Of a stretch of 64,000 bases of DNA, positions 9,020 through 61,694 are shown piece by piece. The position numbers and the translations under genes were made by a program. The stretch covers positions 75,147 to 139,146 of the forward strand of contig JAHITT010000006.1 in the NCBI GenBank assembly GCA_018817715.1, written 5' to 3'. The notes beneath the pieces were generated by a model, which was not told the origin of the DNA, made no database searches, and saw nothing but the letters and a program-made list of their open reading frames with translations. Each line of letters begins with the position of its first letter. The stretch's first letter is position 1. The stretch comes from Patescibacteria group bacterium. Its GTDB lineage: Bacteria > Patescibacteriota > Patescibacteriia > Veblenbacterales > UBA10138.

Positions 9020-9059
9020 ATAGGCTTATTCGTACGAATAAGCCTATGATATCCACAGG
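9020..9059 (-). repeat. inverted, diverged copy of the 40-bp palindrome-bearing repeat
   Basis: ATAGGCTTATTCGTACGAATAAGCCTAT (perfect 28-bp palindrome) followed by gatatccacagg; see the copies at 55747 and 61350. Confidence 0.85.
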
Positions 9060-12372: not shown

Positions 12373-12378
12373 ATCTTT

Positions 12379-12411
12379 AAAAAAACCTCCTTGCTTTAAG
12401 GAGGTTTTTTT
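12379..12411. terminator. bidirectional intrinsic terminator
   Basis: aaaaaa-cctcctt-gcttt-aaggagg-ttttttt. Confidence 0.75.
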
Positions 12412-12442
12412 AATATATAACCAACTATGATAAACTTTAACT

Positions 12443-29948: not shown

Positions 29949-30482
29949 TTAAATTATTTCCAGAGTTTTATAACAAAATTCCTGTAAATCGCCCCAAAAA
30001 ATTTCTACGCCATAATCCGCCTTTAAATCAAAATCCACATACCTAGCACCAGAAAACCCATGTTCCATACCCATAATTACCTTACCTGGCCACTCTTGCG
30101 GATTTTCATTTAAACGAGTAAACCATTTACCAACTTCATAACGAGTGGATTGCGCGTATGACCCGTTATAATTAGGCCTCTCTTGGCACTCCATAGGCGG
30201 ACACCAAAACATTATAACCCCCTTAGCATACCCGCCAGTTAAATCCATATGATACTTTATCCAAGCACACTCCTTATACCATTCAGTCATATGAAATCCG
30301 GATAAAACCAATTTTTTAGGTGAAATAATTATCACCTCTGGATCAATATCATGAATAATTTTAATGGCCCGGCTGTGCCAATCTGGAGCGTGTTTAACTG
30401 GACCAGCCAAATAAACCACCTTACAATCAACAGGCAGATTTTTAATTTTTTTAGGATAATGTACTACTTTTGATTTTTTCAT
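29949..30482 (-). CDS. hypothetical protein (weak nucleoside 2-deoxyribosyltransferase-like N-terminus)
   Basis: VVYLAGPV Rossmann-like start; 177 aa; Trp/Cys-rich; no firm match. Confidence 0.3.
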   Translation of the reverse strand: MKKSKVVHYPKKIKNLPVDCKVVYLAGPVKHAPDWHSRAIKIIHDIDPEVIIISPKKLVLSGFHMTEWYKECAWIKYHMDLTGGYAKGVIMFWCPPMECQERPNYNGSYAQSTRYEVGKWFTRLNENPQEWPGKVIMGMEHGFSGARYVDFDLKADYGVEIFWGDLQEFCYKTLEII

Positions 30483-30543: not shown

Positions 30544-31527
30544 TTATTTATTTAAAGGATGAAATTTACGGTGTGTAGTTTCCGCATATTTATCCGAAGC
30601 ATGAACATAGCGAGTAGTAGTATCAAGTGATTCATGGCCCAGCAATACTTGTATAGCGGCCGGATTAGCCCCGCTTTCCGCCAAATAAGTGGCAAAACCA
30701 TGCCTTAGAGAGTGGGCTGAAGTTGGCACATTAATGTGCAACTGTTCCCGATACTGTTTTATTTTCATTTGCAAATAATTAGTCGACAGTCTTTTAGTAG
30801 TTTTGCCAGAATTTTCACCCCGATAAGGAATAAACAAGGCTGGCCAACTATCGTGGCGCAAAGCTAAATAATAATTTATATGCTTTAAGGCCCGATCAGT
30901 TAAATAAACAAAACGCTGTTTGCGACCCTTACCAGTCACAAAAATACGTCCACTTAAATCTATCTGCGATTTGTTTAAACTAATCAACTCAGAAATACGT
31001 AAACCAGTGGCAAATAATACCTCCAACATAGCCCGATTACGAGTGGCCACTTGTTTATTTTTTTCTAGTAAAGAAGGTGACTCAATTAATTTCACCAGCT
31101 CATTAAGTTCTGCCACTTGCGGATGTTTCTTTTCGGTTTTAACCAGTTTAACAGATTCGGGCGACAAAGGTGTTTGGTAATCCAAATCTATTAAATATCT
31201 TAAATAAGCACGTAAACTGGATAACATACGATTTAAAGAATAACTGCGCAAACGTAAGCTTGGTTTATTTTTTTCAGCTGTTAATCGGTCTACTGAGTTT
31301 AAATAAGCCTTATAGCGGTCAATAATTCTTTTGTCTACCTTAAGAAAGGGGATTTTATTATCCAACAAGAACTTATCAAAGACTTTAAGATCTCTTTCGT
31401 AATTATAAATTGTTTCTGGGGAATAATTATTAGTCTGCAAAGACAATAAAAAATCATCCAAATAATCCAAACTCAAAGAAGCTGTTTTAGTTTTGGGGGA
31501 CAGGTGTTTTTTTGCTGCTGTAATCAT
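30544..31527 (-). CDS. tyrosine recombinase, XerC/XerD family
   Basis: N-terminal SAM-like domain; catalytic region R..(ATGLRISEL), HSLRHGFATYL, LGHESLDTTTRYVH. Confidence 0.85.
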   Translation of the reverse strand: MITAAKKHLSPKTKTASLSLDYLDDFLLSLQTNNYSPETIYNYERDLKVFDKFLLDNKIPFLKVDKRIIDRYKAYLNSVDRLTAEKNKPSLRLRSYSLNRMLSSLRAYLRYLIDLDYQTPLSPESVKLVKTEKKHPQVAELNELVKLIESPSLLEKNKQVATRNRAMLEVLFATGLRISELISLNKSQIDLSGRIFVTGKGRKQRFVYLTDRALKHINYYLALRHDSWPALFIPYRGENSGKTTKRLSTNYLQMKIKQYREQLHINVPTSAHSLRHGFATYLAESGANPAAIQVLLGHESLDTTTRYVHASDKYAETTHRKFHPLNK

Positions 31528-31615
31528 AATATTAATAATTAAGGTTTTAACTGAGTGTAAGAGATATTATACTCAGTTTAGCATAAGCCTTTTATTAAGG
31601 CAAACTACTAAAGCT

Positions 31616-31646
31616 TACTGCTTATTAAGCAGTATTAGCCTATAAA
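31616..31646. repeat. 19-bp palindrome abutting an exact 13-nt half-site of the 40-bp repeat family
   Basis: tactgcttattaagcagta, then ATTAGCCTATAAA, which is identical to 55777-55789. Confidence 0.6.
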
Positions 31647-31929
31647 TTACGTCCTTAGCCTAGGATTATCAGTCTAAATACTCCTACTCAGCTAATTTAG
31701 ATGCCTTATTAACTGTTAAATTCGCTTTAAACTAATTAGCCACCAACCAAACTAAGTTGTTAACATTAAAATGGTCTTAAATTAAGGTTTGAATTTAATA
31801 AATCCTTAAGGTAGTTAGCTTTAAAATTAATTTAGGTTTACTTTGGAAATGACTGTCCCACTAATAAGTTTTTTTAATACAGTCTTAGTGCTAAAGATAA
31901 TCGCCTAACTTGAATAATTATTAACTTAT

Positions 31930-32598
31930 TTAAGTGTCGCAAAATATATAATGTTGCAATGCTTTATCAGCTAAACTACTAACCACTATGTCAGCCTGGC
32001 TAAAATCTTGACCTAAGGTGTACTGATTAGGTACAGCAACTACCAAACAGCCGGCGGCTTTAGCCGCCTTAACCCCATTTACCGAATCTTCCAATACCAA
32101 ACAACTTGCCGGGCTTAAATTTAAAGCTTGGACGGCTTTTTGGTATATGGCAGGATGGGGTTTGCCAAATTTTACATCCTCACTAGTGATAACTGTTGGA
32201 AAATAACTAGCTAAATCAAATTTATTAAAAATCAATTCCACCCATTTTTTTTCTGAAGCTGTCGCCAAGACTAAATTAATTCGTTGACCCTTGGCTCTAG
32301 ATAACAAATCAAGTAACCCTGGCAACGGCTGCAACAAATTATCAGTCAGTAAATATTTTTCATAAGCCTGCCTAGCTTCTTTAACCAATACCGGCACTTC
32401 ATCAGGCAAATTGTAATATTTCTTTATATAAGCCCAAACCTCAGGCAAACGCAAACCCATTATTTGACGTTTCAAATCCAAGGTAAAATTTTTACCCCTG
32501 GCCTCTAATACTAATTGACCGGCTTTGGAATAAATTGTTTCCGTGTCAAACATTAAACCATCCATATCAAAAAGCAAAGCAGAAAATCTATTGGCCAT
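31930..32598 (-). CDS. HAD-superfamily hydrolase (beta-phosphoglucomutase/phosphatase-like)
   Basis: LLFDMDGLMFDTE, TAS, K.GKPHP and EDSVNG motifs. Confidence 0.75.
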   Translation of the reverse strand: MANRFSALLFDMDGLMFDTETIYSKAGQLVLEARGKNFTLDLKRQIMGLRLPEVWAYIKKYYNLPDEVPVLVKEARQAYEKYLLTDNLLQPLPGLLDLLSRAKGQRINLVLATASEKKWVELIFNKFDLASYFPTVITSEDVKFGKPHPAIYQKAVQALNLSPASCLVLEDSVNGVKAAKAAGCLVVAVPNQYTLGQDFSQADIVVSSLADKALQHYIFCDT

Positions 32599-55746: not shown

Positions 55747-55786
55747 CCTGTGGATAACATAGGCTAATTCGTACGAATTAGCCTAT
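55747..55786 (+). repeat. 40-bp repeat, left copy (TGTGGATAA motif plus 28-bp perfect palindrome)
   Basis: cctgtggataacATAGGCTAATTCGTACGAATTAGCCTAT; identical 40/40 to 61350-61389. Confidence 0.95.
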
Positions 55787-55793
55787 AAAGAAA

Positions 55794-56687: not shown

Positions 56688-59429
56688 TTATTCTTTATCA
56701 AACAATGTTGGCTTCTGTCCGTTTGTAAATTCTTCGGTTGCCAATTCCTTGTGGCGTAATTCGTCATATCCCTCAAAATCGCTCACGCTCGCAATTTTAA
56801 CTGCCTTGAACCCTCTTTTTTCCATTGCCTTGTCCACGAGGAAAAAAGTTTGAACGCCGCCCTCTTTTTCTAAAAGTTTTAGGGCTTTCTTGCGGTCATC
56901 AATTTGTTTCGCTTCGGCAAGATGCTTGCCTTTAACATCAACGACTATCCACTTGCCTTCGATAAACGCAAGAAAGTCCGGATAAAATGGTGCTGGCTTT
57001 ACTTCAACGGGATACTCAAAAGGATCATTTCTAACCCAAAAACTTTTCTTTTTCTTGTCCAATGAACAAAGATGCTCCAAAGCGTCAGCGACCCATTTTT
57101 CGGGCGGCGAATCAAACTTTACAAACGGACGAGCAGAAAATTTATATCCTTCAACAATAATACCTTTCTGCTGTAAGTGCGAGGACATGGGTTGATGAGA
57201 AGGAATCAAGTTGAGAGTAAGTCCGTCTCGTTTTCTAACAGTAATTTTGCCATCCACAAAAATATCTTTTACATTTTTCTTTCGGAATATAAATTGTCTC
57301 TTGAACATCAATTCAAATGCGCCTTGTCCGTAAAATTCAATAATACTCTTTTTTAGAGCTTTCAAGGCGCGTTTATAGTCCACCGCGTAGGCGGTATCAA
57401 CCTGTATTCCGGCACCAATAATGTTTTCTATCAGCTTCTTTGCAGTATCAAATGAGTTATTTCCGATAAATGAGCCAGTTTGTTCTATAAAATCTAACGC
57501 CCAGCGCGCAATTTCGTTTTTAGGCAAAGCTATTGTTCTGCGGGTAGTCGCTGGCTTGTCAGTCTGCATGGCGATTTCATCAGTTGTAATTTCCGCATAG
57601 TCAATCATTGCCAAAACTTCTGGCTTTAGAACTTTGTCACCCTTGGAAAGCCCGCACACCTCATCAACAAACGCTTTAACGCTTAACGATTGATCTTTTA
57701 GCGCGTCTTCAAAACTTTTACCGGTTGCAGTTGGTTTGATCTGCAAAATTGGAATTTCGTAGTCATCAATAATTTTTCTGTTTACTTTATTCTCGCGGTC
57801 TTCTTCCTCGGTTGGAATTTCAACATTTGCCGGCGACAATGCTAATTTTTGCCGAATTTCTTCTACGATTTGATCAAAGCGGCGGCCCCTCTCGCAAATA
57901 ACATGTAAAATTTCGCTCTGCTCTTTTAGTTCATCGCCCAAAATATCAAACTCCCGTTTTTCTTTGTAAAGTCGGAGACCACGCCCGATAAGTTGGGCCG
58001 CCGCGAGACCAACTTTCTCAACAGTATCGCCCAAAACAACGATTGTATAAAAATTGTCGTAATCAACGCCCTCGGTGAATATACGGACTTGGTTTACAAC
58101 TTCGGCATTATTGTCGTCGAGCGATTGATAATCTGTCCAGACCTCTTCCTCGCTTTTATTTTCGCTATGAATGGTGAAAACAGATTTTGCCACTCGCGAC
58201 AATTTTTTTACTAATTCTGATTTGTTTTTTGGTATATTCGTACGAACAATTTTAGCAATATCGGTTCCTTCACGATTTACTTGTTCCAACACATCATCAA
58301 GCTCGCCCGCAACCGAATCAGGCCAATTTTTGAGATAATCATCAATCGCGTCCGCGTGTTTTATAGTTCTTGCTTTGGTAAGCAACATCGCTTTTTTCAC
58401 TGGCGCGTTAGCGGCGGCAAGCGACTCGGTTTTTAGCAAATGAATCAACATGCCCCAAACCAATTTCTGCTTATCACTATCGGTCACTTCGTCTGAAATT
58501 TTCTCGTCGCTTGTTCCGCAACCAACCGCAAAAATCCTCTTGCCATATCCCTCTCCAATATATCTTTGCATTGGATACTTGTATAAGTTGTCTTGTCCAA
58601 AACTCTCGCTACCACCTTTTTCAAGTGATGTTGCGGTAAATTCCAGCACAGCGCTCGGCAAGAGCTCAAAAATTGCTTCTGCGGTTTTCTTTTGCTGGTA
58701 GTGGTGTGCTTCATCAGAAATAATGACTGGCCGCTTTTCGCGTAAAAATTCCACAAACGATATGGTGTGTTGCCCGCTTTTATCACGCCACAATGATTCT
58801 TCAAGCGGCCGGCGAACATATGGTGTCCCTTTCATTGTATCTTCACCGTCTTTTTTGTTCGATGAAGCCGCTTTATCGTAAAACTTCTGCATGTTGAAAA
58901 CATAGAAAGAAACGTCGCGATCATCTTCGTAATTGCAGGTTTTATCACGATAAGAATTTCCCGTAACCAAGTTGTAGGTTAAATTCCAACCGTCGCCAAA
59001 AATGCTTTTTACTGCGCGCGGCGTAAAGTTTTCTATCGTCTTATCAAACAAAATTGTGTTCGGAGTGAGAATAAGAAAATCTCTAAAACCTCGGTGGTAT
59101 AAGTCCAAAATCGCCGCGCCCATCAAAAGGGTTTTGCCGGAACCGGTCGCCATTTCAAAACCGACCTTATTCCACCCAACAATCTTATCGTCATCGTCTT
59201 TTCCTTGTTGAAGTGTTTTCTGCTTTAAGCTCCGGCTGTCAAACTTGTCTTTCCAAAAAAGTTGAAATGCGCTCAATGCTTCTATTTGATACGGGCGCAA
59301 GGCAAATTTAAGCAAATGCTGTATCTTTTCGTAATTCTCAATCGTTTTTGGCGACGGCGAACCGACGGCAATTTTGTATTGCTGGTCTTGGCTCACTAAA
59401 TCGTAAAATGTTTGCGGTTTTGTTCTCAT
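56688..59429 (-). CDS. res: Type III restriction enzyme, Res subunit (SF2 helicase plus C-terminal PD-(D/E)XK nuclease)
   Basis: LRPYQ, MATGSGKT, DEAHH, TAT and QLIGRGLR helicase motifs; C-terminal YPDFLAF...VVDVKGK; 4-nt ATGA overlap with the mod stop. Confidence 0.85.
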   Translation of the reverse strand: MRTKPQTFYDLVSQDQQYKIAVGSPSPKTIENYEKIQHLLKFALRPYQIEALSAFQLFWKDKFDSRSLKQKTLQQGKDDDDKIVGWNKVGFEMATGSGKTLLMGAAILDLYHRGFRDFLILTPNTILFDKTIENFTPRAVKSIFGDGWNLTYNLVTGNSYRDKTCNYEDDRDVSFYVFNMQKFYDKAASSNKKDGEDTMKGTPYVRRPLEESLWRDKSGQHTISFVEFLREKRPVIISDEAHHYQQKKTAEAIFELLPSAVLEFTATSLEKGGSESFGQDNLYKYPMQRYIGEGYGKRIFAVGCGTSDEKISDEVTDSDKQKLVWGMLIHLLKTESLAAANAPVKKAMLLTKARTIKHADAIDDYLKNWPDSVAGELDDVLEQVNREGTDIAKIVRTNIPKNKSELVKKLSRVAKSVFTIHSENKSEEEVWTDYQSLDDNNAEVVNQVRIFTEGVDYDNFYTIVVLGDTVEKVGLAAAQLIGRGLRLYKEKREFDILGDELKEQSEILHVICERGRRFDQIVEEIRQKLALSPANVEIPTEEEDRENKVNRKIIDDYEIPILQIKPTATGKSFEDALKDQSLSVKAFVDEVCGLSKGDKVLKPEVLAMIDYAEITTDEIAMQTDKPATTRRTIALPKNEIARWALDFIEQTGSFIGNNSFDTAKKLIENIIGAGIQVDTAYAVDYKRALKALKKSIIEFYGQGAFELMFKRQFIFRKKNVKDIFVDGKITVRKRDGLTLNLIPSHQPMSSHLQQKGIIVEGYKFSARPFVKFDSPPEKWVADALEHLCSLDKKKKSFWVRNDPFEYPVEVKPAPFYPDFLAFIEGKWIVVDVKGKHLAEAKQIDDRKKALKLLEKEGGVQTFFLVDKAMEKRGFKAVKIASVSDFEGYDELRHKELATEEFTNGQKPTLFDKE

Positions 59430-61149
59430 AGTAATTTATATTCTCTCAAAATTGCTGCCGGTATCTTTTTTACCATAACGCGATCGTCCAACGAATCTGG
59501 CGGCACGGAAACGGCGACATTGGTAAAAATTGTTAGGTGTTTGAATTTTTCTCTTTCCAATTCGGCAATAATTTTTTCATATAGATCAGCCGTTAGTGTT
59601 TTTACTTCTCTTGAAGCAAAAGAAATGGCGAAATGATAGCGTGCAGATTGGTGCTTGCCGAGATACATACCTTCCTTCTCCACCCACTTCGTCTCTATCG
59701 GTCTGTATTGGAAATGTAAAAATACTGCTTCGGCCATTTCTGCTGCTTTCAGCGACCAATTCATATCTTGTTCATGTATCACGCTCTCGCCTAGTTGGTA
59801 GTATTTGAACCCTCCGCCACCTTTCCAGTTCACATCCTTGCTTATCCCTGTTTGATCTTTCCCAGAGATGATTTTTTGTAGGCGTGGCATGATGAGTTCG
59901 TCAGCGTGACGTCCCATTTCTACCATAATCCAACGACGTTCCATTTTGTGCGCCACGGCTCCCGTGGTCCCAGAACCAGCAAAAGAGTCAAAAACCAAAT
60001 CATTTTTTCAGTCGAGATTGAGATAATACGCTGTATAAGTTTTTCAGGTTTTTTTGATTTGGGAAAGTCAACCCCTCCTTCGCCCGCAATTCCTTCCCAA
60101 GAAATATCGTCCCAAATATCTGTTATCGCCTCTACTGGCAATAGATTTCCATCCACTTCCTGTAATCTTTCTCTATAAAATAGGACTCTCTCGCCCCCAA
60201 TGAATAAATAGTCCATATCATCATTTGGATGTCTAACAATTTTATTCTTGAGTTTGCGCGACTTTTCAAGAGTCTTAATCCTCTTGAGACGAGCTCCACC
60301 AGTAACCGACGCCGTACGAAAGACTCTCTCGGCATTTTTAATTGCAAAAACTCCTCTTTCAGCATTAAATTCATCCTCTCTTAATTCTTTTTTTGCGTCC
60401 CTTGCATTTGAAAATCCAAGCTCTAGCGCCACAACTTCATCAATATTCTTCCATGACCATTTATCTTCTGGTTTTTTTATATCGTCAAAAACCCAACGAT
60501 ATGCTTGATCATATCCCTTTTCAATAAATGTCTTTTTGAATTTCAGTTGAGCAGAGTCTTTTGCGAAAATCAAAAGGTTATTTGCTGATTTGAAAAGCTG
60601 ATTTGAAGTGTGCTTAAAACCAAAAGGACTATTTGCTTTTATAGTCACAGTATTTAGATAATTCTGTCTGCCAAATGTCTCATCAAGCAAAACACGGCAA
60701 TACGCGACTTCTTTATCATCCAAATGTACGAAAAGAATCCCGTCCTTTCTCAAGAGTTTGCGTAGCAGAAACAACCTGTCGCGCATCATTGTTAGCCATT
60801 CAGAATGTTCAAGATTGTCGTCATAGTGTTTGAAGGCGTTCCCTGTATTAAATGGAGGGTCAATATAAATACATTTCACTTTTTCCTTATCCGGTCGGCC
60901 CTTAAACATCTCAACCAAACTTCGCAAAACTAACAAGTTATCGCCCTTGATAAGCATGTTATCGCCTGTCTTGTCGCCAAAGTCTTTGGCAAAGCGTAAA
61001 ATGCGCGGTTCGGCAACGCGAATATCATTTTTCGGCACCCAAACCGGCCGGACACCCTTGCCCTCCTTTTCGTCAATTTCGTAGTAAAGCGAAAGGTCTT
61101 TGTTTATCCAATCCAGCCGTAACGAGCCCTTGTAACTTCTTTTTTGCAT
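59426..61149 (-). pseudogene. mod: Type III DNA methyltransferase Mod (beta-class N6/N4), interrupted by a frameshift in an A6 run
   Basis: The 5' ORF carries motif IV IYIDPPFNTG; the 3' ORF carries motif I DSFAGSGTTG. The frames join if the run at 60003-60008 has 7 A, giving ..ISISTEKNDLVFDSFAGSG.. Confidence 0.8.
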
Positions 61150-61349: not shown

Positions 61350-61389
61350 CCTGTGGATAACATAGGCTAATTCGTACGAATTAGCCTAT
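61350..61389 (+). repeat. 40-bp repeat, right copy
   Basis: Identical to 55747-55786, in the same orientation. Confidence 0.95.
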
Positions 61390-61598: not shown

Positions 61599-61623
61599 TC
61601 TTATAAACCATTTATGTACAAAG

Positions 61624-61694
61624 CTGGGAGACATGGATTCGAACCATGATTACCAGGGCCAGAACCTGGCGTCCTACCATTAGACGATCTCCCA
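61624..61694 (-). tRNA. tRNA-Gln (anticodon CTG), CCA not encoded
   Basis: Acceptor tgggaga/tctccca; anticodon arm ccagg-TTCTGGC-cctgg; T arm catgg-ttcgaat-ccatg. Confidence 0.85.

Follow-up and report, generated by a model that had tools for sequence, protein, structure and literature searches.

We analyzed a 64-kb window (64,000 nt, positions 75,147 to 139,146 of contig JAHITT010000006.1), a low-GC (~36%) chromosome segment of a member of the Patescibacteria (candidate phyla radiation), and focused on the intergenic gap at positions 31528-31929 and on a 28-bp element within it that resembles the dif sites of Xer recombinases. The gap, 402 bp in length, lies between two minus-strand genes and comprises the 3′ flank of a HAD-family hydrolase gene (31930-32598, minus strand, with an FtsQ-like gene next to it) and the 5′ region of a gene encoding an Xer-like tyrosine recombinase of 327 amino acids (30544-31527, minus strand), hereafter xer. 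An earlier note on this DNA had described the gap as unusually long and free of open reading frames (ORFs) of 60 codons or more. This is confirmed: it is the largest RNA-free gap of the window, where the median gap is 24 bp, and its longest ORF, of 50 amino acids, overlaps the start of xer. A terminator scan of the gap found none. Relatives, too, had long gaps 5′ of xer (median 264 bp).

The recombinase carries the Pfam domain Phage_integrase (PF00589) and a SAM-like N-domain (PF02899). Its best match among solved structures was XerD (1a0p), the PDB match to XerH being weak (E = 4e-11). None of the NCBIfam equivalog cut-offs was reached, the scores being 193 bits for XerC (cut-off 335), 183.5 for XerD (330), 173.7 for XerA (220) and 95.8 for XerS (267). 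The catalytic residues R177, K200, H272, R275, H298, and Y307 were invariant in 33 homologues, and the R-K-H-R-H/W-Y catalytic set is present in the gene that adjoins the 28-bp element. Orthologues 62-85% identical occur across two phyla, in a clade common to Patescibacteria and Dehalococcoidia. An exact look-up of the window's recombinase returned no record, and a second recombinase was looked for in the 64-kb window and none was found. Smyshlyaev et al. (2021; PMC8138268) described a ‘Cand’ subgroup of Xer-related recombinases of candidate phyla, suggested to be Xer stand-ins, for which they gave no target site; the recombinase of the window probably belongs to this subgroup.

The 28-bp element is intergenic and lies at 31550-31577 on the minus strand. 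Two imperfect inverted arms of 11 bp, ACTGAGTATAA (31577-31567) and TTACACTCAGT (31560-31550), flank an asymmetric 6-bp centre, TATCTC (31566-31561), and one A/C mismatch between the arms is conserved. The hairpin reported by the earlier note just upstream of the recombinase start codon is this same dyad, which we recovered as two 12-nt arms (31549-31560 and 31567-31578) that are 92% complementary and 6 nt apart. The element is unique in the window and occurs once per related locus (loci of 2-21 kb). It fits the layout of dif-type sites, which are ~28-31 bp long, AT-rich and non-coding, with imperfect inverted arms of ~11 bp and a centre of 6-11 bp. Its identity to the dif sites of E. coli, B. 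subtilis and Chloroherpeton (sequence from Kono et al.) was 15-17 of 28 positions, with the shared positions concentrated at TATAA-TAT...TTA; a 12-2-12 palindrome present elsewhere in the window, which served as a control, shared only 7-8 of 28. For comparison, archaeal dif shares 14-18 of 28 positions with the bacterial consensus (PMC2958812). The dif sites predicted by Kono et al. for Dehalococcoides have a different sequence from the element, and we found no description of the element sequence, or of a dif site in candidate phyla, in a literature search.

Conservation was assessed in 82 sequences, namely 81 related loci (numbered with the prefix L) and this window. The element, whose degenerate pattern is RYTGNGTATAAT-N5-TWAYRCTC, was recovered with 0-7 mismatches in 71 of them, always upstream of xer and in either orientation. 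The carriers included Kerfeldbacteria, Buchananbacteria, Sungiibacteriota, Paceibacterota, members of the Microgenomates group, and metagenome-assembled genomes of Dehalococcoidia/Chloroflexota; some element-bearing records were titled Saccharibacteria or Gammaproteobacteria. Positions 4 and 6-12 were invariant in the 71 copies, the left arm containing an invariant TATAAT, and the right arm was more variable. In seven loci the element was flipped relative to xer and its promoter with its sequence unchanged, which argues for a DNA site and not for an RNA hairpin or a −10 box. Where HNH or LAGLIDADG genes had been inserted upstream of xer, the element stayed with the promoter, 500-1400 nt from xer. 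The conservation pattern as a whole points to a site that would be recognized, as DNA, by a protein.

Two simpler identities of the element were considered and rejected. As an RNA hairpin it would not account for the flipped copies, which keep the DNA sequence; the predicted transcription start moreover lies inside the left arm, and covariation between the arms was weak and mostly confined to the outermost positions. As a mere −10 box it would be at odds with the flipped copies and with the separate canonical promoters that precede the element.

Some related loci differ between the element and xer. Free-standing homing-endonuclease genes lie there in two of them (HNH, L062:5508-5996; LAGLIDADG, L006:8745-9203), and in L008, L074, L077, L066, and L029 the element is likewise 500-1400 nt upstream of xer. 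Of the element, one locus (L039:65-100) keeps nothing beyond the left arm and one more base (AACTGAGTATAAT); unrelated sequence follows, and the contig ends 65 nt upstream. An integration event could have left this remnant as a hybrid site.

A sigma-70-like promoter of the form TTGACA-17-TAnnnT, ending −3 to +16 nt before the element and most often 3 nt before it, was detected in 37 of 66 loci, vs 1 of 66 in a control window placed 100 nt further upstream. The conserved promoter block in the clade of the window is TTGCCT-17-(TGn)TAAACT. In the window itself, the predicted extended −10, TGcTAAACT (31575-31583, minus strand), overlaps the start of the left arm by its last three bases, and the predicted −35, TTGCCT (31598-31603, minus strand), of putative function, lies 17 nt upstream of the −10. 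The TGnTAAACT block is kept in L001, L081, L198, and L199 and the TTTGCC block in the closest relatives. The window's own promoter matches at 8/12, below the threshold of the promoter scan, and we therefore infer its −10. The rest of the 5′ untranslated region of xer (31528-31549, minus strand), which separates the element from the ATG at 31527, is partly conserved, with TTAAAA after the element. Because the −10 ends on the left arm, transcription should start inside the element, and to judge from the sequence a protein bound there should therefore block transcription.

Exact DnaA-box 9-mers (TGTGGATAA or TTATCCACA) were strongly clustered just upstream of the element in related loci: 38 were present in 1.13 Mb, among them 12 at −39 to −57 and five at −165 to −223 from the element (examples of loci with boxes 39-57 nt and 165-223 nt upstream: L010, L011, L046, L049, L052, L054, L074; L031, L036, L038, L045, L061). 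The window's own gap contains no exact DnaA-box 9-mer.

On average, the surroundings of the element in the relatives resemble a replication terminus. The share of coding sequence on the xer strand was 80-93% upstream of the element vs 18-36% over the 8 kb that follow xer, and five separate synteny groups, as well as most singletons, showed this convergence of gene orientation. At the element, the mean GC skew stepped down from +0.085 to about −0.03. A maximum of the cumulative GC skew is a signature of the terminus; among the 31 loci with 8-kb flanks, it was no more than 3 kb from the element in 15 and no more than 220 nt from it in six. The minimum never fell within 3 kb in these 31 loci. In the complete genome behind L075 the switch occurs exactly at the element.

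We thus propose that the gap contains the promoter and 5′ region of xer together with the dif-type core of an Xer-type chromosome-dimer-resolution module, a reading to which we give a probability of roughly 65%. Subunits of the recombinase would bind the two arms of the 28-bp element, the invariant left arm being the strong site, and after cleavage strand exchange across TATCTC between sister chromosomes would resolve chromosome dimers, possibly with this single recombinase. When bound at the element, the recombinase would also repress its own gene. The remaining ~350 bp of the gap would be a fast-evolving spacer with a lineage-specific palindrome and probable relics of the 12-2-12 motif. The earlier note had suggested, as one possibility, that the promoter region of the recombinase may carry its own binding half-sites and be autoregulated; this general idea agrees with our proposal, the site itself being the element at 31550-31577 and not the 13-mer on which the note had relied. 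A broader version, at even odds in our estimation, would see here a hitherto undescribed Xer/dif module common to both phyla, probably spread by horizontal transfer, in which the site, nearly invariant between the phyla and set between the promoter and the start codon of its own recombinase gene, doubles as an autoregulatory operator and as a landing pad for homing endonucleases.

Several observations weigh against a dimer-resolution module. The element was not detected in six loci (L026, L063, L019, L064, L073, and L028). No island flanked by duplicated elements was present among the 81 loci, and neither a scan of viral contigs nor BLAST searches of phages and plasmids revealed a mimic of the element. 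In the complete genome behind L032, the skew maximum is ~5 kb upstream and the genes do not converge at xer. When gene strand was controlled for, the replication part of the skew step was small, gene orientation being the main signal. In the window and in L081 the GC skew falls to half its value at the site (~32 kb in the window) without changing sign, and the window's cumulative-skew maximum, at ~12.35 kb, is ~19 kb from the element, an offset of roughly 4% of the 531-kb contig. Finally, the element overlaps a promoter, and regulation alone could explain its conservation.

Two side observations concern these loci and positions. Where the element was undetected, an ORF abutted xer or lay just upstream of it, with 175-193 amino acids where measured (for instance L026:9415-9996 and L063:9466-9993); two such ORFs were scanned and had no Pfam match. 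The skew maximum of the window (~12350) adjoins a strong bidirectional terminator-like palindrome (12377-12413).

The alternative that survives best takes up the objection from the promoter overlap: the 28-bp element would be purely regulatory, serving as an operator where transcription of xer begins, with the recombinase or another factor as the protein that binds it, and the dimer-resolution site would lie elsewhere. The promoter that ends on the element in 37 of the 66 loci and the invariant TATAAT of the left arm speak for it, as do the distant skew maximum of the window and the failure to see a second copy, an island or a mimic. However, an operator has no use for a conserved asymmetric 6-bp centre, an 11-6-11 layout or an identity of 15-17 of 28 positions with dif, which would all be superfluous; the terminus-like context is found repeatedly, in synteny groups independent of one another, and in the flipped copies TATAAT does not act as the −10 of xer. 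We consider a purely regulatory element unlikely, if still a serious contender, and retain the dif-type core as the preferred reading.

The other alternatives involve a repeat family of the window, whose core is an exact 12-2-12 dyad, TAGGCTWATTCG-YA-CGAATWAGCCTA. Three copies were present. Copy 2 (CCTGTGGATAAC followed by ATAGGCTAATTCGTACGAATTAGCCTAT, 55747-55786, plus strand) and copy 3 (61350-61389, plus strand) are identical over 40 bp; they bracket the genes of an inositol monophosphatase and of a type III restriction-modification system, next to tRNA-Gln (61623-61694). The variant copy 1 (9020-9059, minus strand), overlooked by the earlier note, consists of ATAGGCTTATTCGTACGAATAAGCCTAT (dyad 9020-9047) and an adjacent TGTGGATAT box; the changes in one of its arms are matched in the other. 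In metagenome contigs the palindrome turned up in at least 116 stretches (L082-L197), mostly from groundwater samples; the viral contigs scanned gave no match. We examined 117 palindrome loci, that is, the fetched metagenome loci and L079, with 112 distinct copies. Among the matches listed, 29 of the 117 loci had a winged-helix ORF of the ArsR family (PF01022), 86-89 amino acids long, at a distance of some tens of bases at most from the palindrome, which was often found on both sides of the gene (e.g., L135:811-1170, L143:1096-1448, L111:795-1186), and xer adjoined the palindrome in one organism only (L079 and duplicates), where the palindrome follows the xer stop codon by 28 nt. An ArsR-like gene was looked for in the 64-kb window and none was found.

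A 12-2-12 inverted repeat is the described operator layout of ArsR/SmtB repressors. The family resembles these operators as an exact repeat of this type adjoining a small ArsR-family gene, and differs from them in that its copies often bracket the gene and have covarying flanks, which a plain operator does not need. These flanks extend the dyad by 3-5 non-conserved, complementary bases (complementarity 0.81, 0.60, 0.58, and 0.41 vs 0.45, 0.30, 0.27, and 0.28 in shuffles), which hints at a hairpin or cassette aspect. We read the repeat family as the putative recognition motif of an ArsR-family regulator and not of the recombinase.

Two further features were seen around the repeats. Each of the three copies has a DnaA-box-like 9-mer directly beside it, which is TGTGGATAA, or TGTGGATAT in the variant. 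Between copies 2 and 3, the type III methyltransferase gene mod (59426-61149, minus strand) breaks up into two overlapping ORFs where six A follow one another (60003-60008); a sequencing error, a frameshift or a phase-variation tract could account for this.

It is the link between this family and the gap that the earlier note had emphasized. The 13-mer ATTAGCCTATAAA does occur at 31634-31646 and at 55777-55789 (in copy 2) and nowhere else in the window; it abuts a 19-bp palindrome, TACTGCTTATTAAGCAGTA (31616-31634, 9-nt arms separated by 1 nt), and a second TTAGCCTA follows at 31655-31662. The match is real, whereas the significance attached to it (~0.002 occurrences expected by chance) does not stand. 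The consensus of the repeat family accounts for no more than 10 of the 13 bases (ATTAGCCTAT), the trailing AAA being the flank of one copy, and by our arithmetic a 10-mer of such composition is expected ~0.3 times per window, so that a single 13-mer match is not significant. Moderately unusual is the presence of two copies of TTAGCCTA 20 nt apart, expected by the same arithmetic ~0.01 times per window; single copies averaged 4.18 per window in shuffles. By chance alone, palindromes with 9-nt arms are no rarity in an AT-rich sequence of 64 kb. The two half-sites (31634-31662, plus strand), that is, the 13-mer and the 8-mer at 31655-31662, resemble one arm of the 12-2-12 motif. The possibility that the 19-bp palindrome is itself a repeated motif was rejected, as it is unique in the window and not conserved.

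For the gap as a whole, we compared the relatives whose Xer is 82-85% identical (L081, L198/L001, and L199). The order hydrolase, long gap, xer was seen in L081 (gap of 465 bp) and L198 (484 bp), while L199 and L001 end before any upstream gene. In these relatives, which keep xer, only the proximal ~75 nt of the spacer aligned and the distal gap was unalignable. Neither the TTAGCCTA pair nor the 19-bp palindrome was conserved in L081, L198, L199, or L001. A 13-mer resembling the arm (two mismatches) occurs on the same strand 66 nt upstream of the element in the window and 77 nt upstream in L081 (shuffle P ~0.01-0.03 each, ~0.025 for the window); none was found in L198 and L199. No complete 12-2-12 site was present in the gap of the window or in those of the compared relatives, and the best 26-mer alignment to it in the gap required 10 mismatches or an indel. 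The half-sites are most likely a decaying copy, or a chance echo, of the unrelated ArsR-linked 12-2-12 motif. They may be the degraded site envisaged by the earlier note, but as a relic of the ArsR-linked motif and not of a recombination site.

Could the half-site cluster be a weak operator that still works, through which an ArsR-family regulator modulates xer? The match is to a regulator-linked motif, and the arm-like 13-mer is on the same strand and at a similar distance in the window and in L081. Nevertheless, a complete 12-2-12 dyad is lacking and the two copies in the gap are direct and not inverted repeats, nothing comparable exists in L198 and L199, the window has no ArsR-like gene, and repression from a site upstream of the −35 would be atypical. 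We find such an operator improbable.

Even less probable, in our view, is the suggestion that the TTAGCCTA half-sites at 31634-31662 are half-sites or a degraded site of the recombinase, with the repeat family as its target. The spacing of the pair, with its low chance expectation, and the two 40-bp direct copies that bracket the restriction-modification block lend it some appeal; the family can also be read as 10-6-10, the palindrome follows the xer stop codon in one organism, and perfect-dyad dif sites exist, such as that of Legionella XerL (PMC9765430). Set against this, xer is adjacent in one organism among the 112 distinct copies listed, the ArsR-family gene accompanies the palindrome in 29 of 117 loci, the half-sites are absent upstream of xer in other loci, the palindrome matches dif at only 7-8 of 28 positions, and a far better conserved candidate is available 60 nt away.

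That the gap might encode an unrecognized structured RNA, as the earlier note had also proposed, or a small protein, as its length (402 bp vs a median of 24) and the long gaps of relatives (median 264 bp) might suggest, is hardly credible: Rfam searches of the whole window at gathering thresholds and of the gap at E ≤ 10 gave chance-level matches only, folding of the distal gap on both strands gave z-scores of −0.58 and −1.56, which are not significant, there is no ORF of at least 60 amino acids, and the distal gap is unalignable among the close relatives. We therefore describe the stretch 31663-31929 as a non-conserved AT-rich spacer 3′ of the HAD hydrolase gene, without Rfam match, ORF or terminator.

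On the other side of xer, an ORF of 177 amino acids (29949-30482, minus strand) lies directly 3′ of the gene; neither Pfam nor NCBIfam gave a match for it. In L199 and L198, too, xer is followed by an ORF of comparable size (175 amino acids, immediately, in L199; 174 amino acids, with a NUDIX gene in between, in L198). Many related loci have long perfect palindromes 0-60 nt after the xer stop codon, where genes converge (e.g., L002:10978-11009, L004:10992-11029, L055:10958-11003, L065:10957-10987); these are probably bidirectional terminators. In L079 this position is taken by the 12-2-12 palindrome.

If the 28-bp element is indeed a dif-type core, it would bear on a process, chromosome-dimer resolution in the very small and mostly uncultured Patescibacteria, of which we found no description in the literature searched. 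With a defined 28-bp site and a defined recombinase, the question can be put to a direct test, in vitro or in E. coli. A short, near-invariant motif of this kind would also be a practical marker of the terminus for closing or checking metagenome-assembled genomes, and a place to look for Xer-hijacking mobile elements in both phyla. The identity of 62-85% between recombinases of distant phyla raises the question of a transfer of the module, and the overlap of the site with the promoter of its own recombinase suggests a simple feedback loop, not emphasized for other Xer systems. Independently of xer, the 12-2-12 motif and the small ArsR-like gene form a candidate conserved regulon in Patescibacteria.

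The proposed module can be compared with four known Xer systems. Sites adjacent to the recombinase gene have been described as characteristic of XerS and XerH, systems with a single recombinase (PMC5357621; PMC9765430), and an asymmetry between right and left arms has been reported for the sites of both (PMC5357621). As in XerS/difSL of streptococci and lactococci, the site adjoins the recombinase gene, in what would be one module at the terminus, and its arms are imperfect with one half-site that would dominate (PMC5357621). The difSL site, however, is 31 bp long with an 11-bp centre, vs 28 bp and 6 bp for the element; its sequence is unrelated, its hosts belong to other phyla and the protein of the window is no XerS equivalog, so that only gene adjacency fits. 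As the proposed module would, XerH/difH of Helicobacter and Campylobacter combines a single recombinase with a site near its gene and an asymmetric affinity of the arms (PMC5357621), but the arm sequences are different and XerH has ~355 amino acids vs 327 for the window protein.

The 28-bp, 11-6-11 layout and the sharing of about half of the positions with bacterial dif recall XerA/dif of archaea, a single-recombinase system as the proposed module would be (PMC2958812). Archaeal dif, in contrast, lies away from xerA, the hosts here are bacteria and the protein scores below the XerA cut-off. With XerCD/dif the module has in common the 28-bp, 11-6-11 layout, the inner-arm motif TATAA...TTA and, on average in the relatives, a terminus-like location, and the best protein matches are XerC and XerD. 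It departs from that system in that the protein of the window scores about half of the XerC and XerD cut-offs and in that the element is adjacent to xer and overlaps its promoter; the near-symmetric arms of the element, moreover, suggest that one protein would act on both.

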